From contig CM119372.1 in the NCBI GenBank assembly GCA_051294905.1, forward strand, positions 31,932,001 to 31,996,000: a DNA stretch of 64,000 nucleotides. Direction: 5' to 3'. Each line of letters begins with the position of its first letter. Position 1 is the stretch's first letter. A model generated the notes under the pieces. That model had not been told where the DNA came from, ran no database searches, and saw only the letters and a program-made list of their open reading frames with translations. Source of the DNA: Botryllus schlosseri. Its lineage: Eukaryota. A program made the translations under genes and the position numbers. Positions 1,841 to 60,805 of this stretch are shown here, piece by piece.

Positions 1841-3478
1841 TTAATCCAAATTCATAGCGCTCTGTACTCCGCCATACAACGAAATATGGATAAGAATGGT
1901 CGCCATAATATTTTCGGTATAAAATCTCGAAATGTAAATATCCCCCATCTTGATACCAGCCAGAAAAGTAAGGTTGGTGACAATGAGAAAACCGAACATA
2001 AAACACGACAAAAATCCTCTGAAACGTCTGCTCCACTGAGGCGTGAAGTATCGCCTTTCTAAATCTTTCACGGTGTCCATTCGATAGATCTTCATTGCAA
2101 TAAACTCTACCAGTACACCCAACCAGCTCATGGCAGACCATCTTATATGTCGTCGCATCGGTCTGTGCCACAGCACCACAAAGCTGAATGATGCTGTAAA
2201 ACTTAAAATTGCTCTAAACGGCCCATTTCGCGACCCTCCGCAAGGAATGTAAATGTACCGCACGATCCACTTGTGAAGACCTTTGTCAATAAGTTTCCAG
2301 AAATCGCTCATTCTATGTCTGGAGTAGACACACTGAGGCTGACCGGGTGGATCCAAACCATCGGAAGTGGCGAAATGAGCGGGTAAGCCATACATGACTA
2401 GATATTTGAAATAAAACAATCCGACCTGGGCCATCGAAAGTCCACATAGATGATAGATCTTCAATGTTTGGCTAGATGACCAATTTTCGTAGAGCAACGC
2501 CGATGCATACACATAATGCAAGACGAAGTCAATAAATAGATGATAAGTCGCAAACTTCACCAAATTCAGTATAAATTTAGTGGCTCTTGAAGATGTCCAT
2601 GGAGATGGCGGCATTTTAGACTGCTCCGCGAATTCGTTGTAATTCAGAACAGGCCCAACAAAAAGTAGGGGAAAATACATTTGATACATTAGCAGGTCCA
2701 AGAAGGTCAGGTCCTCATCTTTTTCATCCTCGTAGTATTGGGTCTTATTCTCTTTTAACATTTTTGACTTTTCTGTTTTCAGCTCACACTTTCTTCGATG
2801 TTGCAAAACATACTCGAGTCCAAAGCTAATGTTTCGCAAGATGCTCATTCCCACGCAAAGCCATAACATGTATATTTTATCAGGGTCGGATTTATAAAGT
2901 GCTTTCAGGGCTCCGTTCGTGTTGTGAAGCAAGTACATCAGTCCTAAACCGATGATCCAACAGGCCGTCACACTTTTTGTCAAACGCACCGTCCAAAATT
3001 GAATCACCAGATGACTCAATAGATACAATACGGCTTCAATGTGCAGGAAATACGCCGTGAATGCCAAGCTGTAGGCCAGTAGTATCTGAAATCTTCTTTC
3101 TGGGAATATCTTGTCAGCCAATCTCGCAACGATGAAATGCCCAGTAAATCCGCGAATGTAGCCATCCCGGACGTGATATTTCCAGAAAGACCAATGCGAA
3201 TCGGTATTATCCAAGTGTCGCCCAAGCCAATCTATCCATCCATTTTCCAACAGTCCTTTCTTTACAAATTCATTCTCGCGTGACGATGATACCGGAATCA
3301 AAGTGCATACTGTTACGATAACTCCTCCACTCCACAACAGCATACAAATAATAACTTCAACGGAATTTAATTTCGGATAATATTTCTTCCTAATCTCAGT
3401 CGTTGCTTGAAAATCGGACGCAGCCGATTTCACGTTTTCTGCCCCTTCGCTGAATTTTTGAGCAGTTTTTGTACGCAT
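1841..3478 (-). CDS. HHAT: Hedgehog acyltransferase-like MBOAT protein (protein-cysteine N-palmitoyltransferase), single coding exon, 545 aa
   Basis: Long ORF with many transmembrane segments and HHAT/Rasp/Gup1-type motifs: YFPLLFVGPVLNYNEF, LFYFKYLVMYG, FWKLIDKGLHKWIVRYIYIPCGG and FSFVVLWH (catalytic His). Confidence 0.88.
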   Translation of the reverse strand: MRTKTAQKFSEGAENVKSAASDFQATTEIRKKYYPKLNSVEVIICMLLWSGGVIVTVCTLIPVSSSRENEFVKKGLLENGWIDWLGRHLDNTDSHWSFWKYHVRDGYIRGFTGHFIVARLADKIFPERRFQILLAYSLAFTAYFLHIEAVLYLLSHLVIQFWTVRLTKSVTACWIIGLGLMYLLHNTNGALKALYKSDPDKIYMLWLCVGMSILRNISFGLEYVLQHRRKCELKTEKSKMLKENKTQYYEDEKDEDLTFLDLLMYQMYFPLLFVGPVLNYNEFAEQSKMPPSPWTSSRATKFILNLVKFATYHLFIDFVLHYVYASALLYENWSSSQTLKIYHLCGLSMAQVGLFYFKYLVMYGLPAHFATSDGLDPPGQPQCVYSRHRMSDFWKLIDKGLHKWIVRYIYIPCGGSRNGPFRAILSFTASFSFVVLWHRPMRRHIRWSAMSWLGVLVEFIAMKIYRMDTVKDLERRYFTPQWSRRFRGFLSCFMFGFLIVTNLTFLAGIKMGDIYISRFYTENIMATILIHISLYGGVQSAMNLD

Positions 3479-5260
3479 TGCTTAAACTATTTTGCTTGAC
3501 ACTGAATCGGCGAGATAAGCTTACAAACGACATGTACGTGGTTTATCTCATAAAACTTACAGGAAATCTCTCGATCGATCTTGTTGAAAGCGATTATACG
3601 ACTTGCCGCTTCATGGTAAAAGCGGAAACAATAAACTTCGAAATATTGCATAACTATTGTGTATGTTGTTTTGCCGCAGGGCTAGTTCGGTTTCAATGAA
3701 CCACTTATCAAGTACAAAATTTTATAATCCCCTCGAACCAGATTAAACTATTTCGTCACCGGCACCTTATAAGCATTGGAGGCGAATAAAACGTCTGAAA
3801 CGCTTCAAAACCCCCACGAACGAGATGAAAAATAATATAGGCTAGTATTCATACACGTTTAGTCATTCGTATCTAACGGATGCAGAGCCCGCCTTTGGTA
3901 AAATAGGAATGTGAATGGAACATGCTGTGATACATCGGAAATCGAGACATTCTTTTACCATAATCATGATTACTCTTACAATATAATAAGACAGAATAAT
4001 TCTTACTGAACGCAGAGACGGAAATATCGAGGTGTATAACTTTGTCTGCGTGCGTTCGGGATTAAGAAATGTTACCTACATATAAATATAACAAACGATG
4101 TAGATTCTTACTGAATACTACAAAAGATGATGCTCATGTTGCCACGTATAGTTGAGTTGGCTATTTAGTCTACGAGTTCCCAACTTGTGGGTTATGGCTC
4201 CTCGTTGATTTTAGAGAAAATGAACTTGCGCGCTTGGGACGACGTCGGTGCCGTGGGCATAAGTTATCAATCGACAGAAGCAGATAATGTTGTTATTAGT
4301 ATTATTATTAGACACAACAGTGGTGCTTTTAGCCAGTTTTAAGTGCACCGTTGTCCTTCTCGGATCCACGCTACCGATGCATAACGTGTATCGTACTTAA
4401 ACTTAACAGCCTTTACATCACACCAGCCGTTTTTAAACTTTACTAACCGGGCGAAACCTTACGCTGATCTGCAAGCATAAGGCGGAACACGAAATATTTG
4501 CTTAGTCGCAAAAACGAAATTTTACCACATTACACTGGCCACCAGTAACGAAGTAGGCTACTTGTACCGTTCAAAGTTCTTTGTGCAGTTTTCCCTACTC
4601 GTACTATACTTCCCCAAGTATAGTTATGAGTTTAGACTACTTCTACTTTTACTTGACAATATTAAGTTTATGAGGAAAATGCCTAGAGTAGGCCTACTTA
4701 CATAGTTGCATACTGATGTTTCTACTTCTTATTGGGTCGAAAGTTACGGCGTTACTTTTGCTTCTACTTGAGTACCGACGGTGACTACTTTGACCACCTC
4801 TGCATTACATATCTAATACATACAATACTGGAACACAATATGTTCTGTGCATCTGGAACAGTGTAGGAAGAAAAAAACATTCAAGCATGATTTCCACACA
4901 TATCAGATAGGCTGCAATTTGGAGTGACTTACTCGGGCGAGTCGGGTGTGTGTCTTGCACTGTTACATCTAAGCTGCGCGCACAAAAAAGTTGGGGGATG
5001 TAACGTACCCATTTGGAAATTGTTAAAGTGTATCAAGTAAGTATAACAATGGAAGATGTATATGTGTACTTGGTTTCAACTTGAATATATATATTTGAGG
5101 GATGGATGTCATGCTATTACAAACTTCCACAGGCCAGGCAACGTCTAAAAGAAAGGAGAAATACGTCGACATTAGCGACAAATTGAAGCGGCTTTGTGAT
5201 GAAACGTGGTCAACCGACATGACTACAAATTTTCGGTCAATAGTGGCATACAATCTAAGT

Positions 5261-5400: not shown

Positions 5401-7774
5401 AACACCATGATAATTATAAGGCAATGCTTCTCACACTGGGGCCTGGGCCCGTGAAAGCATTTGAAGAGGGACGCATCGCCCAGCGTCCAACAAAGCGATG
5501 CTTGTCTTAATACAACCAAATACTCCGGACGCTTCGCCATTACGTTATCTTGTACCCAGTTGCGATTGTAAACGCATGCGTGTTTACTTTCAGCACATAT
5601 TGGCAATAATTGCGGTGAATCAAGCGTTGTGAAAAGGCATAAGCAAGCAGCAGAACCGCGAATGGGCGAGCCTTGCTCAATCATTTGGAAATGATTGAAA
5701 TATACGTAAGACCAAGACATTTAGTAGCCGTGGTTAAATATGGCCCGCGACGCGATTCTATTCGGACCTCAAAGTTATGCTTGGAATTTCGAAAATAAAA
5801 CGCGCATGAACTAAAACATAGGCTGTATAAACTGGACCGTTTATGGCACGCGTTTACATTGAAGCCTACATACGTCGTATGCGTAATCCACAGAAATAAA
5901 GTCAAAAGTCACTGTTCCACATGACACAGTTCACACAGAAATACACGGTACGTACATTCATTCCACAGTTGTGCCATACGTTTCCATATTATCTAATTTA
6001 AGATTTTCTTGGAAGTACAGAACTTCAATATAAAACTGAACAGTATAGTCATATTTATTTCTACTTGAACAGCCTTATTGTCTTATTTGATCACCTCTGC
6101 TGATAACCTGCTATACGCTCGTAAGTCTGAATTCCTCGTAGGTTGTGACGATTTGACAATAGTATCAAATGCAACGGTTTCGCGAAAATTCTTGCCTGGC
6201 AGCTTCAACTCATGTGCAAATAAAATAGTATCGCAACGACTGTTGCCTCAAGTATTATGTATTGATCGAATGGTAGAGCAGACTAGACCAGTGCTTTCCA
6301 ACAAGTGGGTTACAATGCTATTTCAGGTGGATCGCGAAGAATTTCTAAATAACATATACAGTTTCCTATTCAAATTGCCAAATATGCCAAACACGTCATC
6401 TTCTCGGCTCACGGTTAGGCGACCAAACATACCTTCTACTCATCTAAATTAAATTGTTTTGCACCCATAATCGCTGCAAGACACGTTCTCGTGCTCACAA
6501 TAATTCATGAGCCCGATTTTCATTCTGATTGGAGTGCGAAATTTGGCAGTGTAATATTGTGTCTGCTTGAGAATTGGAAATATTTCCATCCTCCAAATGC
6601 TTTACGAGCGTTGGGAACGAATAGCCTAGTACAGTAAACTAGGCACTATTTGTCGTTACAATGAGTCAACAATAACTACTCAGATCCCCTTTGTGCTCGA
6701 CGTAAAAAATTGATACAGTCGTATACCCGAATAATTGAGGAAAGTGACTTGTCGCCATTTAGTTAAACTCGCTATTCACACGACACACTGTGCGTTGAGT
6801 GACGTTATCATTTGTTTGATCATATCTCTGTGTGGGTCGCACAATGAAACCTGGATGAAAAGTTGGTCGAGAACTGAAAAAAGTTATGAAGTACTGTACA
6901 CCTGAATATTGCATCGCATCTCCATCGTAAAAAACGCCTCGGTGGGGCCGACGAAAATAAATCAGATCTCAAAGATGTACATTATACGCTTGTACCTGGT
7001 TCAATTCGAAGCTCTGAATATTCGAATTCATCACCGTCCAAAAACGATATATTACGTATTTAGGTGGATGAATCCGCGATTAATGCATCGATTCACGACT
7101 CCAGCCTGTCAAGTACTTGATTTCCCATAACAGGCCCGCTGACTGGAGCAGTTGCCCACCTTTGGTTTTATGTGTCAATTGGCGGTAGTGGTGCAATGAC
7201 CGGTAGAGAAAAGGCGATCTGGGCTTCTGAAGGTGACAAAGTTTCTTTCCATCCGGGTCATATCCGATAACGAAATCAACTTTTCGAAATAGTACCGAGT
7301 GTGATGGTAACAAATTCAAAATTGTTCTATTTATAGGTCATCAGAAGCTATTTTGCGATATCGCGAAAATGAATCCTGAAATTTCGAAAGTAGTGCACTT
7401 CTAATTTACCCGTAAAATATGCGACAGCACTTTCGACCAAACCTACTTTCTACAACTACATAATTCAGTCCTTTCCAATCCATATATCATAGTTCCATAT
7501 TAGCAATGGTTTTGATATATATTGAGAATAGCTATCTACCTACTCGTACTTGAGTAGAAATTAATGACCTCGCATATTTGAATGGTAATGCTGAGTATTA
7601 CTTAAATACCCGTTTTACGCTGTCCATGCCGATTTACGGTGAGCTCCAGACTAGTCTAATTATTCATATCAGGTTACTATCTAGAGCGGAGCGGATCGAC
7701 AAATTCTCTTGTCCGATTCCGACTGCGTAGAGGTGGGAATTATCAGGATGAAACATCTTTTTGACGGTTCTATA

Positions 7775-8175
7775 CCAATACCGAGAAAACCATTACCGAG
7801 AACGAACATTACCGAGAACGCTATTACCGAGAATGGACATTATCGAGAATGGACACCACAGAGAATGGACATTACCGAGAATTGACACCAAAGAGAATGG
7901 ACATTACCGAGAATTGACACCACCGAGAATGGACATTACCGAGAATGGACATTACCGAGAATGAACAATACCGAGAATTGACACCATCGAGAATGGACAT
8001 TACCGAGAATGGACATTACCGAGAATGAACAATACCGAGAATTGACACCATCGAGAATGGACAATACCGAGAATGGTCATTACCGAGAATGAACATTACC
8101 GAGAATGAACATTACCGAGAATAGACATTACCGAGAATGGCCATTACCGAGAATGGACATTACCGAGAATGGCCA
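7775..8175. repeat. 16-bp tandem repeat array (GGACATTACCGAGAAT), about 25 units
   Basis: Unit repeated head-to-tail with variants; explains the spurious ORF 7761-7964. Confidence 0.92.
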
Positions 8176-8959
8176 ATGTCGAAAATCTAACTATTACTGA
8201 GACAGACGTTGTCGGGGAAATTATACCTGAGAATTGACACCATATGTTGCAACGCCGTGATGCACACAGATCGTGTATATGTATATAATGAGTCGGTGTT
8301 ATATGTCGCAAAAACATCGAGGACAACGACATACAACGTTCTGTTCCTATTTTCATTGCTTTCAAGTATTGTACATAGTACAGTGTACATATTTCCCTTT
8401 CGATGAAAAACATTATTACTCAGTTGCAACGCTGTACGAAATTGTACAATGTACATAGCTCAGGATCGCATTTTGCAGCACACGGGGTGCAAGCGCATGG
8501 GCGAGTGAAATAAAAATACAAGTGATAGGCTACTTCGTGCAGGTAACGACACCGAAGATGAAGTCACAAGTTATGAGTACAATCGAAATACTTTACATTA
8601 GTCTATATTAAACTTCCCTTGATGAACTGAACTAACAAACTCACGATAGTCATTTCACTTCACACGCTAATAGTGACACGAACGATAAAATCTCAAATTT
8701 GAAATAACACCGAAATGCTTTACAGTAAATAAAGTTTCAGTTGATGAACTGAGATCACAAACTCACGATTCTGATTGTACTTCCGATGCTTAGCTATAGA
8801 ATGGCACGAAGAATAAAATTGTTGGTTATGAATAAATTGGTAATGGTTCACATAAATCTATCTTACTAATTCACGATCTTTTCTATTTCCTACTCTTTTT
8901 TATGAAGTGTCACAAAGAATTAAATCGTGGGTTTTCGTATCAACGATGACGTCAATGGT

Positions 8960-9470
8960 ATCAACAAATATGACATCAACATTCAACGGCATGAAATTTT
9001 AAAAAATCGAGGTGAAGAGATCGCATAAGCTCAATTTCCTATTTTCGTGGTACACGAACTCCTTCTGTTGGCAGAAACTGTGTTGCAGGGAGCAGTTGGG
9101 TTGTCGTGAAAATCGCATTGCGCACTATGTCGTTAGTTACTGACCGCAAAAATCAATTGTTTTTTCAAAGTGGGTGGGAATAGGACCAACCCATGGTAGA
9201 TGGATAAACACATCTTTAGTTGTTCGTTCGGTAGGCTCTGTTGACTTTTTTGAGTTGAATTGCGATAATTTTCATCTCGGGGTAAACGCGTCATCAAAGA
9301 ACATTTTGCCGATGTTGTCAACCTCTAAACTCAGTTTGTCATTCGAACAGATCATCAACGCTTCATTCACCAGAGTGCCAATGAAGTTGATTTTTATACG
9401 TCTAGGACTAAAAGAATTTCAACATAGATATTGACGTGAGAATGTTGGTTTCCCGAAGACAGATAGCTAA
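8960..9470 (-). mobile_element. Decayed Penelope-like retroelement fragment (RT thumb/linker joined to the end of the GIY-YIG domain)
   Basis: Minus-strand translation with stops and frameshifts: SVFGKPTFSRQYLC*NSFSPRRIKINFIGTLVNEALMICS, then VFIYLPWVG..FEKQL, then CQQKEFVYH at about 9050-9075. Confidence 0.75.
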
Positions 9471-9822
9471 ATTTGTTGGTATAATATTTTCGATCAAAAC
9501 GTTCAGAAATGACAATAACTTAGAGCGTTATTTGTAATTGTGAATCGCAGGGTAAGGTGAAGCGACATCAAACGAACGATGAATTGACCACTTTCCAACT
9601 CGGATCGGCAAATCGATCGACCATTTCTCTGATCCGATTCACGTCTTGTTTCTTGAATTTATTAGTCCTGCCCCGGTTCTACTCCTAGACAGGATTCTGG
9701 AAATGAACGCAATCCAATCCGAAAAAATTATCGACAATTTCTGGTACTTATTCCTAGTAGAGCTTCTTGGAGGTACAGAACTTCAGTATACAATTGAATA
9801 GTATATATTCATATTGAAATGA

Positions 9823-9856
9823 ACCCGAATATTTTCGGCTGACACTCGTCAGGGGT
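9823..9856 (-). ncRNA. Minimal type I hammerhead ribozyme
   Basis: Minus strand reads ACCC-CTGACGA-GTGTCAGCC-GAAA-ATAT-TC-GGGT: complete core, stem I ACCC/GGGT, palindromic loop III. Confidence 0.75.
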
Positions 9857-10140
9857 AATCGTCATCTGTTGGATAATCCGATTTGTGCGAATAATTATCG
9901 AGACGATAAATTTCAGGTTATTGGGAGGGGCCGTTCACACTTTCACTTGTGTGCCTTGGAGTCGACTGTTATCAAAATACACCAACCGAAACTCTGTCAA
10001 CAGAAGGAGTTTGTGTACCACCTAGGAATAGTGCACTGAACGCTCTCTCATTCGAGGTTTCATGCTGGTGACGTCATATTTTGTGACACGATTGTTGATC
10101 TACAATGTTGTTTCTTATTCTCTACTAGTTGCTGACGATT

Positions 10141-10173
10141 ACCCTGACGAGTGTCAGCCGAAAATATTGGGGT
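10141..10173 (+). ncRNA. Hammerhead motif with mutated cleavage site (probably inactive)
   Basis: ACC-CTGACGA-GTGTCAGCC-GAAA-ATAT-TG-GGGT; UG in place of the required UH. Confidence 0.55.
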
Positions 10174-10689
10174 TCATTTCAATATGAATATTATATTCAA
10201 TTATTTCTAGTACTACAATAGCATTATAATATAGGCTACGGTACGGATTCATGTTATACATTGAATATTGCATGAGATTACCATACGCTCTCCTTCAAGA
10301 GAAGTGTTCTCCTTTTTGACAATTTGTCTTCATGTTAGCCTAAAATGCCCTAAAAGACCACGAAATACTTGTGATTCTGGTCTTGAAGACAGTCGGGTTA
10401 CTCGGGAGTCAAATCTGAAAAATAACCATTTTTAAGTCAACACTGATAACACTGTGCTGCGTTAATTTTATGGTTACCAAAGTATTGACGGTTTTTAGTG
10501 TACTTTTTGATGCTGAATCCAAAACTGTTATCCGTTTTCTTCAATCAGGTCTAGATTTTTGGCAAATTGCATTTGAATATTCAAATACTGCAGGTTTCAG
10601 CGTTATGCGATTTAGAAAGGATTTAGCAATCATGCTTTGATGAAAAGTTAAGACTATATTTCAATTATGACGAAGACCATTCCCTAAAG

Positions 10690-11003
10690 CAGTAGTTCTT
10701 CAAGTGAGGGACGCGAGAGCATCTGAAGGGGGGCGCGAAGTCGCTGTTAACTGAAACTTTTCGCGCTTCGCGCGATTTACATCCAGCTCATGGTATATCT
10801 ATTGTCTATTGTCTATTGTCCGAATTTCATATTTGAGAATTATCTCCTCAATAGCCATAACCTTCAATGCCATCAGACTATCCGTTGCGATTGCTAGCTA
10901 TCTGATTTCTGTCTTTGATATTTCGTAATAGTCACGAGTAGGGGGCGCGTAATTTTTCACTATCAACAAGGGGGTCGTGTCTAGAAAAGTTTGAGAACCA
11001 GTG
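10690..11003. mobile_element. hAT MITE nested in the Chapaev3 element
   Basis: CAGTAGTTCTTCAA...TTGAGAACCAGTG, degenerate TSD CCCTAAAG/CCCCATAG; a second copy lies at about 53604-53867. Confidence 0.7.
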
Positions 11004-11115
11004 CCCCATAGTATACTGTAAAGAAGTTTAAGGATTATTATCACCTTTGGGCAAAGGCCACAGATCTGTGAACTAATCAAAGGTGAATGTTATACTACAC
11101 ACATGGGGCCTAGGT

Positions 11116-11425
11116 GCAGTAGAAAATTGACCATGGGCAGCTTTTCGAGTAGTCATTTTAAACTTCTCGGAAAGCATGTAAGCCCCGATTATGAAGCACA
11201 GGTCAAAGAGCTGCTTGAAAGCTTTCAATCCCTTTGAGTCCTGATGTCTGTGAAAATGCACTTTCTGACTTCTCATTAGGATTACTTTTCCAGTCAACTG
11301 TGGTGATTACGGCGAATAACTAGGAGAGAGATTCCACCAAGACTTTCGCCAGATGGAAGAAAGGTATCAAGGATACAGGGACTTAAACATGCTTGCAGAT
11401 CACCGTTGGTGCTTGAAGAGAGATC
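11116..11425 (+). pseudogene. Chapaev3 transposase C-terminal remnant
   Basis: Translation with stops and frameshifts: WAAFRVV..FLGKHVSPDYEAQVKELLESF..MSVKMHFLTSH*DYF..GERFHQDFRQMEERYQG..MLADHRWCLKRD. Confidence 0.8.
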
Positions 11426-12827
11426 CACATAACTCCACACATGGAAGAAAATCTTTGAAGCGACATTTATTGTCTGCATAAATCATTTACATCATCTATT
11501 GTTATTGTATTTATCGTCGGAATATCAGTATCAGTATTAGTTTAATTTATCATCATGTTCCCACAACACTTTCTTTGTTAAGCTATTTTGAAAACTTCGT
11601 TTTCATTTCACACTTCTCACATTGATGTTGGCAAGGATTTCGTATTTAAAACACCTTTGTGATGTTAAAAGTGTTTACGTGCAACATATCCAATTATACC
11701 TTCTTCTGTTAGGTTGAGCGCCATTGAATAAACTTATGCTTTCTTGGTTAGTTGTAAGTGCCTTTATTTCAACTGTGTTGATATATTTTAGTAGAATATA
11801 AAACGGCTGGCATGGCAAAAACCTTGAATTCAAATAAAAATACCATCTTACAAAAAATTGCAACATGCATAACTAATCAAGCTACCACAAAAATTAGTTT
11901 CTTGGTGTATAATGATGACCAAAAGTTAGCATAGTTGAATATGCCGTGGAGAAAGACTTGACCTGATTAAGAAAAACTGGTTGTATTTTTTAGTTCAGTG
12001 CAAAAAATTGATTCGAAAACAGTTAAAACATCTTTGACCTTTGAAAAATATTTTTAAACGCAGCACAGTGTAATGTAAGGTGAAAGCGGATCTTACGGGA
12101 GTCGATTCGGAAAAATATTCTTTTTCAGTCAACACTCCAGAACTATGGGTAATAAAAAGTGGGTAGTTCGGTTGATCAGCAATTTTTATCAGTTGAATAC
12201 TCCACAAGAATTGCGATACAATGAAATGATAGGAAGGTGTCGAAACTACTATAGTCTTCGAAATCAGACACCCACATGGCCCAGGCGATGTAAAGAAGAG
12301 GCATACACACTGATTGTAAAGTAAATTAGATAATATAAAAAACGCAAGCGCCAAAAATGAGGTGCCATGTCACGGAAAGCAAGATCTATAGGTCAGGCCG
12401 TGGTCCGGTAATCTTGCGGACGGACTATAGTATTCGTTTAATAGCAATTGCTCGTATTTCGACTTGAATATGAACATGCTCATCGACTGTCGAGTAACCG
12501 GAGGGATATTGTTCCACATATCAGGTCCGGCATATTTGATAGATTGATAATCTTTTAGGTAGGGATTGTGTGAGCCTCTAAAATGTTCAGGTTCGTCTGA
12601 ACGCGAACCTTTCTGAAAAGCTCTGTGTGAACGCGAACGTGAACATCATGACGTCACGTGACGTCATATTGCTGGTTCCAACCCTACACTTCAGTGAAGT
12701 GATAGCCTATAATAATATACACGATACCTAGCGACGAATCGGGTCAACTAATGCCACAATGATGAAGTACATATTGATGTTTTTATACGTCGCCAGATGT
12801 ATAAACTGGGGCCATCAAGTGATATTT

Positions 12828-18888: not shown

Positions 18889-19382
18889 CTATACCGATTC
18901 TTGAGGAATCCTCCTCTGGAGCTCAGACGTATTGAACTGGTACTTTCTGCGAGATGCTTATAAATAGCGCAAAGTATATAATTGCAGCGGCGTCGTCAGG
19001 TTGTCTGGGGGGAGGGTCGATTTTGAGAACCACTGTCCTATTGATGGTGGTCCGGTAACCACGAGCCATGATTAGTTTTTCACATTACCATTACCTTGCA
19101 GTAGGGCTGTTCAAAATTATTTTTCCGGATTCCAGCCATTCACTGACTAAATTGTCAACGAAAAGCTCAAATAACTCCGCTTCTACTTGTTGGAATTGAG
19201 TCAAATTTGTTTTGCATCGTTTTTGAAGGCAACACAACAATTTCATGGGGTTGACAGTGGAAATTTAATATGAAGTGGTCAACCTGCAGACGTGCGGTCG
19301 CATGCAGCCGTCAAACAATAATTATGCGGCCCTCTACACCGAATCAAAAAACGCGAAACAATAACTTCATATTGTTAATTTA

Positions 19383-19422
19383 TTCGCTAAAAGCTTTTCG
19401 ACTGACCCTCATCAGTAGCGAA
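19383..19422 (-). ncRNA. Minimal type I hammerhead ribozyme (second family)
   Basis: Minus strand reads TTCGCTA-CTGATGA-GGGTCAGTC-GAAA-AGCT-TT-TAGCGAA: 7-bp stem I, intact core, palindromic AGCT loop. Confidence 0.75.
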
Positions 19423-19870
19423 CGTAAGTGATAGGGTGGATCAAATTCGAAATGTGTCTATGAAGTAATAATAACAAAAACAAACAACTAGTAGACGGGC
19501 AAGATACGGTAGTAACGACACAAAACAAACGTTAACGAGCACATATTCGGATATAAATAACCGAGAGCACAGCACACAACATTAATCAAAAAATCAAATC
19601 AAAAAAGCGTGTGTAGGCGACCGTCAATATGCAATTTGAATTAACGAATTGGTTCCCAAATCTTTGAGAGATTATAATTAAACTTGAAAATTTTATTCAC
19701 GCTTAGCGCGATTCAGCGTGCCTTGGATTTTTCAATTTCAATATAAAAGCGTAATCTGATCCTCGCCGTACGAATGCAAACCGCAGAGGAAAATGATGCA
19801 CCCTGTGAAGATATACCAAGTTGGGATCGTGTGAGTCTCACGAATGAAGGTGTTTCTCGTACCTCCAGGT

Positions 19871-28775: not shown

Positions 28776-29468
28776 GTAAGTTGTTACTGATATTACAATC
28801 GCGATTACAAAACCATCGATAACAATGTCTTCGAGAGCATTTTTACAGAGTTAGGGTATTTTGCTTTCCCTTGTGCCAATAATCCATCACTCATTTCAAA
28901 CTCCTTTCAATTCACAATTCTACACGGGAAGCAAGTTCATCCTCAACTGGTCGCATTCGTACCGTGTGGGGGGCTGAGATTGCTATTGCCTGACCCATGT
29001 TCCCTCTAAGCTGCACATAGGGCTCTTCAAAAATTACTTAATTTCTAAAATCGTACTGGCTACTTGATAAAATTGTTAGGTCACCTAATTTAAGCCTACA
29101 CACAAAATTTTGTTCAATTCCAGCCAGTAACCGCTTTGCTACAGGAGAAGAAACTTTTTCTTTATTATATAAAAATGAATAATGAAAAATTTGAAATTTC
29201 CTGTTCTCCCCATGAAAGTGTTAGGCTGTCTATAGAAACGATGCTAACCAAATTTGGTTCAATTCCAACCAGTGGAAGCGGAGTTATTGCTGTCGAAAAA
29301 TTGTGATTTGGATATAATAGTATTTACGGTGAGCACAACTATAATAAATAAACAAAGAATCGGTCACCGTAAATACTATTTTATTCAAATCCAAATTTTT
29401 CGATGGCAATAACCCCTCTTCCACTGGTTGGAATTGAACCAAATTTGGTGAGCATCGTTTCTATAGAC

Positions 29469-30490
29469 CAGGGGTGGGCAAACTTTTGAGCTCGCAGGCC
29501 GCATTCGACATCTGAATCCATTCGCGGGCCGCACTATATAAAATTGGGATTATAAACCAAAACGCAATAATGGTATTTGATTATATAGTGAGGACGTGTA
29601 GATGCTTATTTAAAACAAACCAAGCATTTCGTTGATGATATCGTACATCCGCCAGAAACAGTCGCGAGATTTCATAGGCTGGTCGACCTCAACAACCAAT
29701 TTGTCAAAACTATAGGGATGAAAGTCGGTGGTACCGATTCTTAAAATAGGATATAAATTTAAATCTGTCGGCAGCGATCGGTTCATAGATTTGTTAATTC
29801 CACTTTGGTTCAGTTCCTGGATACACAATGCTGACAGCATCATAACCATGTTAGCTTCCAACACGCTTCTACTGTGTGTGGATAAAATATAAATACCCTA
29901 ATTCTACGCATACAGAGAACGAATCTAGCTAAGACAAGCGCGAATCGTTTTTCATAAGAACATCACTGAAAAAATTGAAACTGTCGCGCCAGACATTTAA
30001 CACAAAAAATAATCTAGGAAGTATTTACCTTAGAACAGTAGTTTTCAAACTTTTCCCCCTTACGATGGTGAAAGTTTACGTGTCCCCTTTATCGTCATAT
30101 CACAAAACGCAACCAGGATGCGAGCAAACCTAACGGGTAGTTTGATGGCATGGAAGGCTACGACTGTGGATGAGAGATTTTTAAATATTAAATTGAGACT
30201 AAATGCAGAACAACAACTGTAAATTGGATGGAAATCGTGCGGGGCGCGAAAAATTTTTTCAGTTGATCTCAGCTTCGCGCCCTTCTTAAGATGCTTTCAC
30301 CCCCTCAAGGTGGGCGCGCCCACCAGTTTGAGAACCACTTCCTTAAAAATATCATGGTGAAATATACTAAAAAGTTTAATCAAGTCCCTGTAATAATTCG
30401 ATTTTTAGTATGCATTTCATCAATATTTTTAAAAAGTTTCTTTAGACTCTCGCGGGCCGCACAGAACGGGCCGTAGTTTGCCCTCCCCTG
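29469..30490. mobile_element. hAT MITE (CAGGGGTGGGCAAAC) nested in the foldback element
   Basis: Perfect TSD CTATAGAC at 29461-29468 and 30491-30498. Confidence 0.87.
30036..30340. mobile_element. Innermost hAT MITE of the nest
   Basis: CAGTAGTTTTCAAAC...GTTTGAGAACCACTT; TSD CCTTAGAA/CCTTAAAA. Confidence 0.7.
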
Positions 30491-32228
30491 CTATAGACAG
30501 TCTAACACTTTCATGGGGTGAACAGAAAATTTTCAAATTTTTTACTATTTAATTTTATATAATAAATAGAAACTTTCTTCTCATGTAGCAAAGCGGTTAT
30601 TGGCTGGAATTGAACCAAATTTTGTGTGTAGGCTTAAATTAGGTGACCTAACAATTTTATTAAGTAGCCAGTAAGATTTGAGAAAAAAGTCATTTTTGAA
30701 GAGCCCTACTGCACATGTGCGCAATTGCACAGTGCTTAGTTAGTCTCTGCGCACAGAAAAAATCTGAAGTGATGTCATTTTTTAGTCGTTATGCACTACT
30801 GTCGAAGGGACCGCGCAGTGAGTCGGTGAGTGTGCGCAGACTCGTCAAAAATTAGAGGGAACATTGGGTTGGCTATTTCGGTGGCGAACAAGATGCATGA
30901 CAAATATGGCTCAATTCCAACGTGTAGAAGTCAAATCATTGAGATACAAAATTAGGGATGTGAAACTTCGCTGGTATATATATTAGGTACATTTTACAGC
31001 TTGCTATAGTATCCCGTTCACCAAAGAAATGTTTGAAGCTGGCCCAGAACGATAACGGTGAGTTATACGATCTTCCAGGGCCGTCACACTCCGAACACAC
31101 AATTAGGGGAGCTCGACTGGACCCAAAATTACTTTGTTGGTCGTCTGTTGAAGTAGATTTTTGTCGTGCTTTGCGCGATTTTTTGTCCCTGTAGGTCTAC
31201 ATTTAAATATGATTAGTAAGATAAAAAGGTGCTTATAATAAATATGCAAATTGGCGGCGGCGATTACCCCACATTGAAAAGGACTGCGACTCTACTCTGT
31301 GGTAAGAGATGGGTCTCAAGAACATTTTCAAACCTGACAATGGGCCACGTCCAAAAGATGTCTGAAAACCCCTGGCTCATTAGCTTCTATATGTTGGAAT
31401 TAAGCCAAATTTGGCTCGCAGAGTTAAATCGATAATTTCGTCGAAGTAGATGGTAAAGTTTGACTTGGCTGTCACACTTCACCAAGTTCGTCGTGACTTC
31501 CTAAAGACGGTTCGGAATCCTTGGATGAATGTGACTTGACATGACCGTCCCACATTACTCACAACCAAACACATATAATGACTTTTGCTCTACTGCTAAT
31601 CAATCAAAGTAATCAATTCATTTATGTTATAGGACGATGATAAAGTCGAAAACAGGAGCAAGACTGTTATCGAGGAGGCAGAAGATTCCGATACCGATAA
31701 CATGGACTAATGCTAATGCATAAATATTTGCTGAAGTGATTGCACAGTTCTGTATCAAGGCCCAATTCTTGCTAACGTATTTTCTTCATCCATGTTTTTT
31801 TTTCGTGTTTTGTACTGATTTCATACAGAACGGAAAGCCATATACATGCTGATTTTTAAAAATGGCGATTAGTTTTCCTTCTGAACAGAAAGGCCTACCT
31901 CTTGCTGCCTACTTCTTGCTAACGTATGTTGTGTTAGGGACTGTTATTTTACCTTCATTCTTCATCCATTTTTATTCCAATTTTTCATCAAGGTCTAGTC
32001 CTGTGCATTTTTTTTGTATTTTGACTTGTCTTCGTCGAGGTCTAGTCCAGTGCATTTTTTTGTATTTTGAACTGGTACAATACAGAACAAGAAGCCATAC
32101 ATGATTTGTAAAACTGACGATTCGTATTCGTTCATGTGTGAAGTGCATCATATAGCAGGTTTAGCCAACCAGGGTTCAGGGTCACACAGGGTCGAGTTGT
32201 ACAAAAAATATCTTATCGAATATCGTTA

Positions 32229-38712: not shown

Positions 38713-40403
38713 GTCTAGCAAGTTCACAAAAGATTACCCCGGTATTTTTTTATATTATCAATAATTTCGAGAATTTCCTTGCGGGCCAATCAAAACCTTC
38801 TCGCGGGAAATATTTGGCCCGCCGGCCACGGGTTGACCGCCCCTGCCCTTTCTGAAGACTTACCCATATGCGGAATGACGTCAGACGTCATGGATCACAC
38901 AAGAGCGGTTTCATGTGACCTTTTTTGTACTTCACAGCGTTGCAATGACTCGAGTACCGATTCTTTTGCTAATAAATGCACGAGATCTGCATCTACGGCG
39001 GCCATGTACCGATTTCCGAGCTGATTACCAAGTGGTATTGAAGGGCTCGCTATAGCTATTACGCGATTGATGGCTGGCGATTGCACACCAGACACGTCAA
39101 CTAATTTTAGAGGATATACAGGACAGATCAGTATAACCAGACCAGGGTAGCGAATGAATGACGCTCAACCGAGATCTGTAAAAAGCTTCACATTGTCCCA
39201 ACGGTCCTTGGACAGGACACATCATGTGACACTTCAGCATTAGGGCTGTTCAAAAATAACTTTTTTTCTCGGATTCCAGCCATTCACTTATTAAATTGTC
39301 AGGTTACCCTAAAAAACGCTGCACATCAAATTTGGTTCAATTCAAACAAGTATAGGACTCCGCAGATCCAATTAAAAATTTTAAGTTATTAGAAAAAATT
39401 TAAAAAAAAAAATTCAAATTTTTTTGCCAACCCCATGAAATTCTTTAGCTGTCTTCAAAGACGATGCGGAACAAATTTGACTCAATTCCAACTAGTAGAA
39501 GCGGAGTTATGTGAGTTTTTTGTTGATAATTCTCGAATTATCTACCGATCAAGGATCGGGGTTTGGGGTTACGATATAATCTAAGGTTTAATAGAAGAAT
39601 TATGGTAGGGTTCGGGTAGGTTTTGGGCTTGTAAAGCCACACGCCAAAGTGACACATGCTGATCTGTCGTTATTCATTGTGTCGCATGGTCATGGTCATG
39701 GTCATGGTCATGAACAGTTATAACATACGCACACTGTGCTGGACGAATAGCCTGAGAAATTATTCGTCTGGTACCGGACAAATATAGCCAGAAGCCACTA
39801 CATATTCTATGTGACCTTGAAATCTCGTAGATCAGGACGGCAATTAAAAAATAGATCCAGAAACGGTCTCTTTGAATAAACATGTTTTTAGAGTAAGAAA
39901 ATGAGTATAGGCTATATTATGAATCCGGGGTCTTCCTATTAGTCGGATCAGTTTCGAGCATTTTGACGGCTGTATATAATTTCAATCATATTTCGAGTAA
40001 ACACTTTCACGATCTCGTTAAAACCGCAAAGTATACGCTGGCTTTATCTGAAAAATAAATTTCATATGTTGTTTTTCTGGCTTTTGCCTGCAACTGTCAA
40101 GGAAATGAAAATTTGTAAAACAAAATGACCCCATTTTGTTTTCTGAAATTGTGCTAGGCCTAGTGTATTCAAATAATGTGTAGACTCATTTCACTATCCA
40201 ACAATATCTTAATACGTCGTTCAATGCATATTACTGGAGGAGTTGTAATACTATTCTATTTGAGCAGAGAGCATACACGTTACGCCTCCGTTAGGCCTAC
40301 ATCCGATGCCATTGCTAAGTTGAGGAATTCAGGCTTAACGTACGACTCATCACCAGGTTATCAGTAGAAGTGGTAAAGTAGTCAACAAGACTGCTGAAGT
40401 AGA

Positions 40404-40658
40404 TGTTATGTTCTTGATCTTGTTTGAACAATAGCTCAATGCGACGAGGTTGCAATACAGAATCAGTATATTATCAGCAGAATAACTTTACGTCAGCGAC
40501 ACGATCCAGAGTGCAGTTAAATGAAAGACCACGAGACAACAGAACACAGGGTATGAATACAAGCACGACACACGAGGAAATAATGATTGGCTGTAATTAC
40601 TAATCCTATAGAAAGAAAAGAGTTGTACGACACTAAACGTAAATGCACGAACATAACA
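40404..40658 (-). repeat. 3' LTR
   Basis: TGTTATGTTC...GAACATAACA; adjacent PPT AGGGGAGGAC on the minus strand at 40659-40668. Confidence 0.93.
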
Positions 40659-41520
40659 GTCCTCCCCTATAAGTTGAGAGGGTTGCCCACATTTACGTAG
40701 GTTTGTAGAAATCGGTTGGCTTTCTGTTCCTAAGAGGATAACGTCTACCCGACGTATGGGCAGGACTAGCTGCAGGACCTTGTGCCCTGTTCCTAACCAA
40801 TGGTTGCTCAGCTTGCGACTGTGGAGGCTGAGCAACTTCCTGTGTGGCTGTATTATTATTATGGCCAGCTGAAATCAAGCGTGGTTGGAGTTGGTTTTTG
40901 TGCCTCCTCCGATACCCATGATTCGTTTTTATAATGTACACAACACGCCCCAGTATTTCCGTCACCACGCCAGCAACCCACTTCGGTCCGCTTCGGTAAC
41001 TGCGAGCGTGAACCGAGGAACCAATCTCGAAATGAGTGACTGATTGTCTAGGCGTAACGGGTTTCGATTTATCGAAGGGCGAGCACAAACTTAACAAATT
41101 GCGCGGCTGCCGACCATGTAAAATCTCAGCAGGCGTTTTCCAGTGACAATTGTTATGGGCAAGTCTTCGATAGAGAAGACTTCCCTCAAAGCGTTGACTA
41201 CACACAAGGTTGTGGTAGAACCGACATTCATTACTTTAACGAAAGGATATTTCGAATGCGCATCGACGATGACAAGAAACATTTTATTGTTCATTGGACC
41301 TGCGAAATCCAAGTGAATTCGTTCAAAGCTTTCAGAAGTTTTTGGCCATTCGCGATACTGACGATCAGGCGCTTTCATTACTTTGCGGCAAGCGTCGCAA
41401 CTCTTAACGAGATTTTCAATGTCGCGATTAATGGAAGGCCATGCGATGTAACGTCGAGCCATCTGCTTCATTTTCGCGATACCCCAATGTCCTTCGTGCA
41501 ACAATGATAAGACTCGCGAG

Positions 41521-42034
41521 TAGGGCTGGGCACAATGATTCGAGTACTCGAATCTGAATCGAGTACTAATTTTAATGATTCGAGTCGAGTAGTAAATACG
41601 ATTTTTTTGAGTACTGAAATTGTACGCTTCTTGCCACTGAAAGTTAATTTATCAATGAGAATTGTCGTTCGATACTAATTTCCGCTGTTGAAGCCTTGAA
41701 ACCTTGATTGACGGTATCGTAGCATACCAAAGATATAGTACAAGCTACGAAGATTACAGGACGTAGCACAATTCCAAAGTCATGATTATCCCACAACATT
41801 GTCACAAAGTGGAATGAAAACGGTATGGTCGAAAAAATATCAAAGTATCATCTATGTGACGGTTAACAGGCAGTATATTCTTTGTAGTGGCATAAACGGT
41901 AAGTATTCGAACTTTGGGGTATTACATTCTGTTATGACGTAATAATGGGTGATACTCAATTACTCGACTCGACTCGAAGCATATTACGTGATTCAGAATC
42001 GAATCACTCAGGTACTCGATTTTGCCCAGCCCTA
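41521..42034. mobile_element. hAT MITE family B inserted at the start of the Gypsy integrase region
   Basis: TIR TAGGGCTGGGCA; perfect TSD CTCGCGAG at 41513-41520 and 42035-42042. Confidence 0.92.
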
Positions 42035-45000
42035 CTCGCGAGCGAAGTGACTGCGGAATTACTACGCGCTGAAAACCATCAATATTAAGCATGACAATGT
42101 CTTCGTGCAGAGAAAGCGAATGTTTGCGAGTCGGAAACCAAGAAAAATCATCAATATGCGTCTTTGGATTCCAATTGCAATGAGTGACAGATAATTTTAC
42201 TAGTTTCATGGTTTTGTCCTTCAGCGTCGCGTCGCGAATTTCATTGCAAGTTAACGCTAAGCCATCGAATGCCATATTAATAGCGTGAACGATCTCCGCG
42301 TTTTCACGAATTTCCAGTTCGTCAAACTCGGGGTCAGGACCCTTTGGTAGGCGAGATAAACCGTCGGCGTTTCCGTGCTGATTAGTCGGCTTATAGCGAA
42401 TATCGTATTGGTAAGCGTTAGTGCCCATCGCTGTAAGCGTTGCGCTGTAATCACGGGAATTTTCTTGTCCGGCGAGAAAATAGCTAAAAGCGGTTTGTGG
42501 TCCGTTACGAGCGTAAATTTTCTACCATACAAGAATTGACGAAATTTGGTGACTCCCTAAATGATTGACAGAGCTTCCTTCTCGATTTGAGAGTAGGACT
42601 TTCGCGAATCGGAAAGCGTTTTCGATGCGTGCGCGATCGGTCTCTCTTCGCTATTGTGCTCGATTGAGAGGACAGCGCCGATTCCGAATTGAGAGGCATC
42701 TGTTCACAAAATGAGATGCTTGTTTACATCATAATGAGCTAACTGCGTAGCGTCGATTACGTCGTTTTTGAGAATGCGAAAAGCTGCGTCACAGTCCGTA
42801 TTCCAAATGAAGTCCGCGTCATTTTGAAGAAGACGGTACAAGGCAGCGGCTTTATTCGTGAAATTAGGAATAAACGCGCGATAATAATTGACTTTGCCCA
42901 GGAATGCCTGCAGCTGGCGAACATCCTGAGGTTTAGGCAACTGTTTGATTGCTTCAACGGATTTGTTAGACGGGCGTTTGCCATCCTTGTCAATAATGTG
43001 ACCAAGATACTCGATGCTACTTTTGAAAAATCCACATTTAGCGAAGTTGACGGTGAAACCGTATTCGGTGAGGCGCTCAAAGAGTAGCGATAAGTTGCGA
43101 AAATGATCGCGTTCATCAATGCCAGTAACGATTATGTCATCGATAAAACTAGCAACACCGGGTAAGCCGGCGATCATGGCATCAATACAACGTTGAAAAT
43201 TTGCGGGACTAGATGTGACTCCGAAACACATGCGTCGATAACGGAATAGACCGAATTGCGTGTTAAGACACACAAATTCTTCGCATCATCATCATCTAAT
43301 TCTAGCTGAAAATAAGCATCGGCAAGATCAATTTTCGTGAAAATACAACCACCCTGTAACTTGAAGAATTTCATCTAAGGAGGGCAGAGGATGTTGATCT
43401 ATCTGAATTTGTTGATCCAATGCTTTGAAGTCACCACAAATGCGTACTGATCCATTAGACTAAGTGACGGCATCAATTGGTGCTGCCCAATCACTGTAAT
43501 TGATTGGTTCGAGGATACCTTGATCCTCGATACCTTGATTGACTAATCTATCCAATTCGGTTTGAACAGCGATTTGCCTTGCGAAAGGCAAAGGACGCGG
43601 CTTGCTAAATACGGGCTTGGCATTGGGTTTCAAGTGAATTGTCACCTTTGTCTTGGTGCATCGTCCTAATACATTAGAGAAAACGGAGGGAAATTTGGAC
43701 CGAAAAGATACCAATTTGTCGTTCGAATCAGAAATGTCAACAGTATTACATGATTGCGATTTGACCATCTGCAAGGAAATTGCATCCAAAGCAGACGTTC
43801 CCTTAGCGGTCATGGAGAAAGCATCGCTCCAATGGAGACCGAAAATTTTTGCCCACGGTGTTCGTCGAAAACTACCAATTTTAAGCCAACTCGAACTTCG
43901 GAACCCACCTGCACAGTTACAGTGCAAATACCTTTCACTTTCAATGGCTTGTCGCCGTACGCTACGAAAGAGCAATGGTATGCTGAGAGTTTCGGAGAGC
44001 CCAAAGTTTTGTACCCAGTCAATCCCACCATGCCGGAGGGTGCACCAGTGTCCCACTGTGTCGGCTACGGAATGCCGTTGATGCTGGAGTTGATCCAGAG
44101 CTGGTTTCCTACGCGTCGATATAGTTGATCGATGTCGAAGGAGAGGAGTGGCACTGAGCAGAAATTGACGGATGTGACACTAGGTTTGGTAGACATGCAC
44201 ACAGGTTTGATATGACCTTTACGACCATATTTCTGACATACTGCATGTCGATATTGACAGTCTTTTCTCTGGTGATCGATGAAACAGCGGCTGCAGGATT
44301 TCAGTCTTTCCGGGAAGTTGCCTTGGATGGATTTGGAAGGTTTTTTCCCCTTCTGATAACTTCCCGTCATTTTGTTGACGATGGAAGTGTCTTTACCGCT
44401 ACTCTCGCCCTGGATAACCCTATCAGTTTCCAGCGTTCTCACGTATGTTGCGGCTACTTTGAGAACGTCGTCAAGGGATGGATTGGTTTGTGTTGAACAA
44501 TGCCATCTCACATCCGCGTGCGGCGTTTCTTTAATGATGAGATCGCGCATTAGCTCATCAACGTAGCTCTGATCACAGCAGTCTCTTTTGAGCATATGAA
44601 GTTGCAATCCTTGGAGATTCCGCGTAGAGTAGCGATCCAATCGGCATATGATTGTCCCGGCTGCATTTTGCAATTGTAAAATTCGTACCTGGCTGCTTGC
44701 ACATGAATGGAGTCTTTGAAGTGTGTAGCCAACTTCTCAGTCAACGCGTCGAAGGTTTGCGCACTGACATCAGCAGCACCAAACAAATTACGTAGGAGCG
44801 AGTACGTTTCAGGTCCAACCCATGAGAGTAGACACGCTCTTTTTTTCTCCATGTTGGAAATGCCGTAAATGGCTAGGTGATGGTTGAATCGTTGCAGATA
44901 CTGGTCCCGTTTTTCCTTTGGTTTTACGAAAGAATCAAACTTGGGAGCGGTAGCTTCAGATGTTGACGCACCGGGACTCAACCTCTGCGTTGACTGTGCA

Positions 45001-45164
45001 TTTCTTCTTTGTGTCGGTTTTTTTGCTGTTCCAACCCAGCCATGACTTTCGCCATTGCTTCGTCATGCTGTGCGCGTTGTTGCTCCATCATTTCCTGCTG
45101 CTTCTCCAGAAGCTTCAAAATACCCGATTCCACGATATATATTCGTCGCAGAAATATAACTTTG

Positions 45165-45183
45165 AATCCGACTTCTGACACCA
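45165..45183 (-). other. Primer-binding site complementary to the tRNA-Leu 3' end
   Basis: Minus strand TGGTGTCAGAAGTCGGATT directly inside the 5' LTR; complementary, with one mismatch, to the tRNA-Leu end ...ATCCCACTTCTGACACCA. Confidence 0.8.
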
Positions 45184-45185
45184 AT

Positions 45186-45440
45186 TGTTATGTTCTTGAT
45201 CTTGTTTGAACAATAACTCAATGCGACGAGCTTGCAATACAGAATCAGTATATTATCAGCAGAAGAACTTTACGGTAGCGACACGATCCAGAGTGCAGTT
45301 AAATGAAAGACCACGAGACAACATAACACAGGGTATAAATACAAGCACGACACACGAGGAAATAATGATTGGCTGTAATTACTAATCCTATAGAAAGAAA
45401 GAGTTGTACGACACTAAAACGTAAATGCACGAACATAACA
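45186..45440 (-). repeat. 5' LTR
   Basis: Direct repeat of 40404-40658 with about 7 substitutions and 2 single-base indels, counted by eye. Confidence 0.93.
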
Positions 45441-45753
45441 GTAGAAGTAGCGTCGCTGGATTCTACTCAAGTACGAGTATATGTAGGCCTAATGCTTTTC
45501 GAAGTGGCAGTTGTGCAATGAGCATAAGGCGCCGCACTTCATCAATCCTCACATATGGTCAATTATTCCGAGGATCCGCGTACTTCTGTGCTAGTGTTGT
45601 TTGTTCCTCCCCGTAATTTGGCTTTTCGTGGTATGAAATTAGACTTTTCATTACATAACAGATAACATACTCTGCCCTGGCCCCTAAAATCTTATTTGTA
45701 TGCATGACTGACCCTCATCGGAGGCGTCTGGGAAAATGGAAACTCGGCTTGAG

Positions 45754-54488: not shown

Positions 54489-54750
54489 AAGAGCTTCTTG
54501 AGGTACAGTTTATTTAATATACTATTGAATAGTATATTCATATTGAAATGAACCTGTATATTTTATGCTGACACTCGTTAGGGGTAATCCTCAGAAACTA
54601 GTAGAGAATTGGAAAAAACATTGTTTATCATTGTGTAACTTTTTATTATGTGACTTTCCAATCCTTCACTAGTTGCTGACGATTGCCCCTGACGAGTGTC
54701 AGTCGAAAATATTCGGGTTCATTTCAATATCACTATGCTATTCAATATTG
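54489..54750. mobile_element. Penelope-like pLTR remnant as an inverted pair
   Basis: Homologous to 9759-9865 and 10100-10205; the two arms are reverse complements. Confidence 0.75.
54685..54718 (+). ncRNA. Minimal type I hammerhead ribozyme
   Basis: GCCC-CTGACGA-GTGTCAGTC-GAAA-ATAT-TC-GGGT. Confidence 0.7.
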
Positions 54751-60700: not shown

Positions 60701-60805
60701 AGAATCCGCTATTGTAATGTACTATCGTGGTGGGTGTTTCTAATATAGTCTACGCTAACACACGGGACTGCTACAAGGATATGCGATACACGTGACTGCG
60801 CCGCT

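Follow-up and report, generated by a model that had tools for sequence, protein, structure and literature searches.

Two hammerhead motifs on opposite strands, flanking the remnant of an endonuclease, raise two related questions: (i) how such an arrangement arose; and (ii) whether it functions where it lies, as a unit that cleaves its own RNA or yields double-stranded RNA. The locus belongs to a 64,000-nt stretch of the Botryllus schlosseri genome (assembly GCA_051294905.1, contig CM119372.1, positions 31,932,001 to 31,996,000), here called the window, and an earlier note had read it as an inverted pair of minimal hammerheads on a Penelope-like remnant that might be self-cleaving. We conclude that the locus is very probably a dead-on-arrival insertion of a high-copy, endonuclease-bearing Penelope-like retroelement, whose active copies would carry a pseudoknotted type I hammerhead completed by dimer formation.

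The insertion is a 444-bp, head-to-head, 5′-truncated Penelope-like copy at 9759-10202, made of two pieces of only 106 and 340 nt. A 5′-truncated inverted pLTR piece on the minus strand (9792-9864) and its counterpart at 10133-10202 form an inverted repeat of 94.5% identity over 73 columns (four differences; E 6e-24), which bears out the earlier reading of the locus as what remains of a Penelope-like element together with an inverted piece of its pLTR. In the left arm a 2-nt insertion follows the start codon at 9812, and this arm extends 33 nt beyond the right one. These 33 nt form a one-sided tail (9759-9791, minus strand) that is part of the 5′ end of the Penelope ORF. The tail is family sequence: the loose ends that family reads show beyond 10202 carry it in each of the four runs, two other copies in the window (element B and piece C, below) share its end point, and by eye its reading frames in the various copies are similar to the N-terminus of the full-length homologue P0176. 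The right arm ends (10174-10202, plus strand) with a start codon at 10184, 14 nt after the cleavage site, and stops at the tail-proximal site. At the inversion junction (9863-9864), as read from the sequence, the minus-strand arm and the plus-strand endonuclease piece overlap by 2 nt. From the stop codon to the ribozyme the element consists of untranslated pLTR (10040-10130, plus strand), which is covered by family reads, and 10096-10201 is 85% identical to element B. A target-site duplication flanks the insertion on the plus strand (9749-9759 and 10202-10212), with 9 bp outside the element or 11 when the two bases shared with its ends are counted. Ten of the 11 bases agree between the copies, and the chance of a 9-mer duplication with at most one mismatch within two registers is 0.0008. 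The right-hand junction is spanned by a contig without other letters (X2 record 8, 10172-10364).

Between the arms lies the C-terminus of a Penelope-type endonuclease, about 58 codons and a stop with no internal stop (9863-10039, plus strand; tblastn). The spacer 9860-10036 (+) shares 51 of 59 residues with P0007 (E 4e-32), in agreement with the earlier note's identification of the flanked piece, and is 86% identical to P0007/P0153 and 51% identical to the full-length RT-endonuclease protein P0011 (E 5e-13). It is also matched by 31 of the 150 homologues of a neighbouring RT remnant. P0011 and P0068 carry RVT_1, and P0068 has a GIY-YIG Pfam match below the curated cut-off; neither the endonuclease fragment itself nor six short frames of the window has a Pfam match, and no Zn-finger-like CxxC, a motif whose absence together with placement in an RT tree defines the Penelope/Poseidon clade, was seen by eye in the RT-EN linkers of P0007 and P0011. 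Two properties of endonuclease-bearing (EN+) Penelope-like elements can nevertheless be recognised: an RT with a C-terminal GIY-YIG domain in one ORF, through the match to the extreme C-terminus of full-length proteins, and a pLTR with a hammerhead beside the ORF start.

The neighbouring RT remnant, about 145 nt from the young element, is an older, decayed Penelope copy of a related family (8953-9613, minus strand). It retains the RT end, thumb, linker and endonuclease end, an internal deletion has removed most of its endonuclease, and no hammerhead was found in it. The possibility that this remnant and the 9759-10202 element are one insertion was rejected, because the remnant is 53% identical to P0153, with five stops in 9140-9658, compared with 86% for the element, and because the target duplication bounds the element alone. 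A word-based search with the remnant, against longer proteins only, gave 107 candidates with none passing, whereas a HMMER search did return homologues.

The head-to-head layout is not novel, and is a standard insertion product. Inverted, 5′-truncated copies with one-sided tails of 30-40 bp have been described (Craig et al. 2021, PMC8557442), and both features are present at 9759-10202 together with the target duplication. The Hydra element Penelope-13_HM is listed in the same work with a motif on each strand; opposite-strand pairs of min-HHR hammerheads 100-700 bp apart have been reported, and a dual min-HHR has been shown in a bracovirus-borne element (PMC4209133). The locus resembles the EN+ elements of PMC8557442 and PMC11167929 in its C-terminal endonuclease, its pLTR hammerhead at the ORF start, its head-to-head inverted piece, its one-sided tail and its target duplication, and the sole difference from those accounts is the shortness of its pieces (106 and 340 nt).

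A mechanism can be proposed from the work of Frangieh et al. 2024 (PMC11167929), in which the protein extends both target strands and the tail corresponds to the stretch between two RT start sites. The Penelope protein would nick and prime both target strands, reverse transcription would begin downstream of the ribozyme, from two positions on the RNA separated by 33 nt, and both cDNAs would stop early and then join. Each arm would carry a ribozyme because the ribozyme lies near the RNA site where copying starts. Because both arms run through the cleavage site, the RNA that made the insertion was apparently uncut there. The hairpin would be a by-product of this process and, if transcribed, would silence the ribozyme. 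The head-to-head arms, the 33-nt tail, the target duplication and the 2-nt overlap are observed at the locus itself, and other breakpoints are observed in other copies.

Element B (54490-54747) is a second head-to-head insertion of the same family with a shorter spacer, for which no target duplication is evident. Its plus-strand motif (core 54689) is intact, with a 4-bp stem I and two wobble changes, and its minus-strand motif (54548-54599) is decayed. Piece C (6006-6055, minus strand) is a tail-only fragment of the family, 84.6% identical over 52 nt (E 3e-9). A metagenome locus (L009) has the same head-to-head layout in a different family. These copies bear on an alternative in which the 444 bp would move as a whole, as a non-autonomous element bounded by terminal inverted repeats. 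Such an element would have inverted ends and a target duplication, as seen here, and the window does hold a second inverted unit; however, the 9759-10202 element and element B share their ends but not their inner junction, and run X5 contains at least four different opposite-strand joints, at different places, among the 15 joints listed of 160. We therefore consider movement of the whole unit barely credible, and return to a product of Penelope insertion.

The family is abundant. Family reads were placed on 9866-10460 from four runs, of which X2 and X5 are contig runs and X21 and X23 are RNA runs, and 41,610 contig records of X2 matched the stretch, a figure that is not a copy number. Site 17 of the hammerhead is C in 92% (X2) and 89% (X5) of contig depth, in keeping with motifs that are genuine hammerheads of the family. 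It is C in 88% (X23) and 81% (X21) of RNA reads, a difference from the contig runs that is not interpretable, as a few loci dominate. None of the 40 of 149 rows listed in the family-read table falls in the core or in the pseudoknot strand described below, which is not proof of invariance.

The two hammerheads were recovered where the earlier note had placed them, at 9823-9856 (minus strand) and 10141-10173 (plus strand). A strict motif scan gave three matches in the window, compared with none in each of 300 first-order Markov simulations. The minus-strand motif has a 4-bp stem I (ACCC/GGGU), the core CUGACGA (9852-9846), a helix II consisting of the single pair G10.1-C11.1 closing a 7-nt loop, then GAAA, a palindromic helix III (AAUAUU) and the site UC, which would be cut between 9827 and 9826. 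The description of these motifs as minimal does not apply, because helix II is one G-C pair and loop II is complementary throughout to an upstream strand: seven bases, starting 13-14 nt upstream of the core, can form a pseudoknot of six to seven pairs that ends at the loop edges and spares G10.1-C11.1. In the right arm this strand is intact (GCUGACG, 10131-10137, plus strand), pairs with loop II (10152-10158), and is present before 10142 in the loose-end consensus of the family in all four runs. The minus-strand copy had been called complete, which is correct for its core, stem I and cleavage site; its pseudoknot strand (9860-9866, minus strand), however, is interrupted by the inversion breakpoint at about 9864 and also has one mismatch near the 5′ end, so that the motif as a whole is not quite intact. 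The predicted duplex is -4.4 kcal/mol for the left motif compared with -9.6 kcal/mol for the right arm. In the plus-strand motif, the change of the site from UC to UG that had been noticed is a G at position 17 (10169); a stem I C, whose loss had been overlooked, is also missing, leaving two contiguous stem I pairs (core 10144). The hammerhead consensus has A, C or U at position 17 (H17; PMC3088659), and with G17 and the lost stem I base the plus-strand motif is predicted to be dead. The Rfam covariance-model check suggested in the earlier note gave no hammerhead match to either motif, either in the whole window at the gathering threshold or in 8000-12000 with E values up to 10 admitted.

Whether the locus itself could cleave depends on how its transcripts would fold. 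The motifs face outward, one on each strand; a transcript therefore holds a single sense motif, whose complement is transcribed first. Folding predictions pair 95-96% of the bases from core to site with the antisense arm in either transcript, and freeing stem I would cost 54-57 kcal/mol while the opposite arm is present (52-57 kcal/mol for the hairpin competition overall), compared with 10-13 kcal/mol once it is removed. The 70-bp hairpin is predicted to be very stable on both strands (minus-strand fold z = -13.1, with 0 of 100 shuffles as good), in agreement with the earlier suggestion that either strand could fold into a long hairpin. In the portions covered of the two RNA runs (about 6% and 3%), no read falls on the unique flank (10226-10305), and reads at least 99% alike to the 9759-10202 copy amount to only 23 of 2084 and 18 of 6847. 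Given the predicted burial in the hairpin, the dead plus-strand motif, the cut pseudoknot strand of the minus-strand motif and the lack of unique-flank RNA, self-cleavage at the locus appears unlikely.

The self-cleaving unit proposed in the earlier note would, in its most favourable form, be a bidirectional one, with read-through RNA cleaved in trans by a dimer of the intact minus-strand motif. That motif does retain stem I, the palindrome and all of its core bases, but with one sense motif per RNA, the core buried by about 55 kcal/mol and G17 in the plus-strand motif, such a unit is very improbable. The weakened pseudoknot also speaks against it, since shortening a pseudoknot helix from six to four pairs made cleavage about 20-fold slower in another hammerhead (PMC3088659), and the opposite arm of element B has decayed, as expected of neutral decay.

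A role in producing double-stranded RNA is possible but finds no support here. It might be that read-through transcription of the inverted copy yields the 70-bp hairpin, which then feeds small-RNA silencing or editing of the family, a scenario compatible with the insertion history proposed above. The stability of the hairpin on both strands would favour it, as would the frequency of such inversions in the family and the presence of family RNA on both strands (peak depth 560/627 in X23). However, the absence of unique-flank RNA, the small number of reads closely matching this copy and the decay of the arms weigh against it, and we consider it unlikely; the RNA argument is a weak one, given that it draws on 6% and 3% of the runs and that structured molecules may drop out of such data. 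The preferred account thus remains an insertion that was inactive from the start, and attention turns to the ribozyme of the element that produced it.

In the active element, the type I hammerhead, whose helix II is a single pair, would precede the start codon by 14 nt. Covariation suggests that the 6-7-bp pseudoknot would dock the 5′ flank of stem I on loop II, and that two copies, such as those of direct tandem pLTRs, would complete helix III through the 6-nt palindrome, with cleavage following. To find metagenome relatives, a pattern was built on the motif of the window with the loop left free, and gave 13 loci. Four of these have a Penelope protein match and represent two further families (L003; L005/L008/L009), the link of L003 being an adjacent RT remnant on the other strand and not an upstream endonuclease; the remaining nine were left out of the alignments. 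All five motif matches in the four Penelope-linked loci have six Watson-Crick pairs at an offset of 13-14, whereas in loci without a Penelope match none of the 19 matches with a 7-nt loop has six such pairs in register. The chance of such pairing is about 0.003 per family.

In an alignment of seven distinct rows, which are mutually related and represent three families, 45 of 49 pseudoknot cells are paired, compared with 18-53% for slid-register controls, and none of 500 shuffles reaches the observed pairing or covariation score. Three of the seven pairs have changed on both sides among the three Penelope-linked families, a count that 346 of the 500 shuffles also reach. The seventh pair is broken in four of eight rows. 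Taken together, these comparisons make it very likely that the pairing of the upstream strand with loop II is under selection.

The same design occurs in another family in the window as motif D (19382-19433, minus strand), with a 7-8-bp stem I and the palindrome AAGCUU. Motif D (19415) forms five of the seven pseudoknot pairs, with a third pair type at the first position, although its pseudoknot pairing alone is no better than the best control. It has no endonuclease match upstream, and its link to Penelope is without a protein match. A short ATG frame downstream of it resembles a Penelope N-terminus. A search of the window with a covariance model (R1) recovered its training rows and the decayed arm of element B, but no other convincing copy.

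Helix III provides a second line of evidence. Its palindromes are AAUAUU, AAGCUU and AGGCCU, with seven of eight rows fully palindromic, and the palindrome covaries at both variable pairs. Adjacent columns 40/41 change together although they are unable to pair within one strand; because they can pair only between molecules, helix III would be a contact between molecules. The palindrome points to a dimer, as in the earlier note's account of Penelope hammerheads. On the evidence of these alignments, the ribozyme is probably a real pseudoknotted, dimer-type variant.

It could instead be argued that pairing of the upstream strand with loop II produces a hairpin that is inhibitory, or simply an alternative fold, and not the docking pseudoknot of an active ribozyme. 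For the intact monomer this helix is predicted to give the most stable structure, in which nested folding leaves no room for stem I; pseudoknots and the active dimer are outside the model used by ViennaRNA, and its own dimer prediction lacks the hammerhead dimer. Among family reads there is no pile-up of RNA ends at the cut site, where depth is in fact highest. On the other hand, in every family the paired region stops precisely where the loop does and leaves G10.1-C11.1 in place; in a type II hammerhead, a 1-bp stem II with a 6-bp pseudoknot was required for fast cleavage (PMC3088659); and standard RNA-seq is unreliable for cut ends, none having been seen in PMC11167929 either. An alternative hairpin is therefore quite unlikely in our judgment, and a docking pseudoknot is the reading followed below. 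A role of loop II in pairing with the core's own CUGAC was considered separately and rejected, as the complementarity holds in the window family and is absent in L005/L008/L009.

Additional motifs were observed among the loci without a Penelope match. In bacterial contigs L018:1530 (-) and L019:1530 (-), 8-nt loops also reach six pairs; these have a core match, a 1-bp helix II, seven of eight loop bases pairing 15 nt upstream and a non-palindromic helix III, and may be prokaryotic relatives or chance. L006:189 and L013:503 (+), also lacking a Penelope match, each contain a motif resembling a type I hammerhead, in which the 8-nt loop II is by eye complementary to a strand 3′ of stem I, not 5′ of it. 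Prokaryote genomes gave 10 pattern matches, none Penelope-linked. Viral contigs gave no match to the full pattern; two looser patterns gave 13 there, all of them lacking both a stem I of at least four pairs and a Penelope match, and protein-based scans of viral contigs found no relative.

How does this ribozyme compare with known hammerheads? It resembles the min-HHR class (Cervera and De la Pena 2014) in being type I, with a conserved core, short stem I, G10.1-C11.1, a palindromic helix III implying a dimer, a pLTR position and opposite-strand pairs. The core CUGANGA, GAAA and UH are found at 9852(-) and 54689(+), and not at 10144(+); the first two also have a stem I within the 3-7 bp of the class, and helix III is palindromic as in min-HHR. 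The published descriptor (PMC4209133, Fig. S7) demands a helix II of 3-7 bp, a stem I of 3-7 bp and GAAANNUH, however, and the window motif differs from the class in three respects. Its helix II is 1 bp, compared with at least 3 bp, judged by eye, in all 56 rows of PMC4209133 Fig. S3 and all 34 rows of Craig's File S2 (PMC8557442); it has four bases between GAAA and UH instead of two; and it lacks the extra base between positions 9 and 10.1. Because of the demands on helix II and GAAANNUH, it is not a min-HHR as that class is defined.

The pseudoknot is a further departure, in that Penelope-type hammerheads are usually without tertiary contacts (review PMC6155905). Pseudoknots between stems I and II, and one stem II of 1 bp, are known from Perreault et al. 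2011 (PMC3088659), a class whose linking helix, between the sides of stems I and II, comprises at least four pairs; the window motif has six to seven. It differs from those hammerheads in being type I, in residing in an animal retroelement and in having a dimer-type palindromic helix III, and the parts of that paper considered here do not show the combination of type I, pseudoknot and palindromic helix III. Non-LTR retrozymes (bioRxiv 10.64898/2026.07.22.740005) likewise have a type I hammerhead derived from pLTR sequence, but they are head-to-tail tandem units, whereas the 9759-10202 element is head-to-head with a coding remnant; at least two head-to-tail units with a complete hammerhead each, which define a retrozyme, are not found, the copies being inverted or dispersed.

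Small Penelope-associated hammerhead variants that cleave as dimers were reportedly described by Lünse et al. in 2017. According to a review, these have a short palindromic stem III and cleave as dimers (PMC6765202). In the portions of the literature covered, including PMC6765202, PMC10085705 and PMC7936874, there is no pseudoknotted Penelope hammerhead, although Lünse et al. 2017 may cover the class, and the consulted parts of PMC8782182 and bioRxiv 10.64898/2026.07.22.740005 describe no pseudoknotted Penelope hammerhead with a 1-bp helix II. There are about even odds that the pseudoknotted dimer-type variant is not in print. We propose tentatively, as a suggestion somewhat more doubtful than that, that a clade of animal Penelope elements carries an undescribed class, which would be type I with a 1-bp helix II, a 7-nt loop II paired throughout in a pseudoknot with the 5′ flank, and a palindromic helix III formed only in dimers.

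If so, the class would have been missed by published descriptors and by Rfam, and Penelope families regarded as 'hammerhead-less' or 'core-only' would hide non-standard ribozymes. Animal Penelope hammerheads so far tested cut weakly, are without known tertiary contacts and may need protein help. The variant might be a fast ribozyme gated purely by dimer formation, such that tandem pLTR transcripts would be cut 14 nt before the start codon and single-pLTR templates would be spared. A natural docking pseudoknot combined with a dimer-only helix III would offer a test between a ribozyme that is slow by design and a dimer-gated switch. An implication for annotation is that motif searches demanding at least three pairs in helix II would undercount Penelope hammerheads. 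The locus as flagged matters little in itself, and the ribozyme design matters modestly.

The window contains other features. Upstream of the locus are a 16-bp minisatellite of about 30 units (7759-8254) and two to three diverged copies of a unit of about 125 nt, 68-74% alike (8548-8819). Nested inverted-repeat elements at 29018-30712, including a 241-bp palindrome at 29228-29468, are related to sequences at 19098-19266 and 39237-39531. A decayed LTR retrotransposon occupies 40404-45442, with 257-bp direct repeats 96.5% alike and with RT and integrase zinc-binding matches on the minus strand. Two host genes were recognised, one with a 546-codon open frame and an MBOAT domain (1841-3481, minus strand) and the other with an 849-codon frame and C2H2 zinc fingers (60749-63298, plus strand).

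Finally, we note an observation on another group of Penelope-like elements. The consensus sequences in the Naiad section of the PMC8557442 supplement include four passages in which CUGANGA and a distant GAAA were spotted by eye, two of them just before the headers Naiad-3_Nbra and Naiad_Hcon. By eye these passages are complete hammerheads in which the core comes first, then the cleavage-site block and then the GAAA block; all three stems (I, II and III) pair, using letters that differ from passage to passage, and there is a long extra helix from the stem I flank to the strand after stem II. They match the non-circular 'type-CSG' permutation, which is known from two metagenome sequences (PMC10085705). 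The sequences suggest that permuted hammerheads are present in Naiads, from which the canonical form is said to be missing. The name Naiad does not occur in PMC10085705, and the literature searched held no link of Naiads to permuted hammerheads; this observation is probably of more interest than the finding at 9759-10202.
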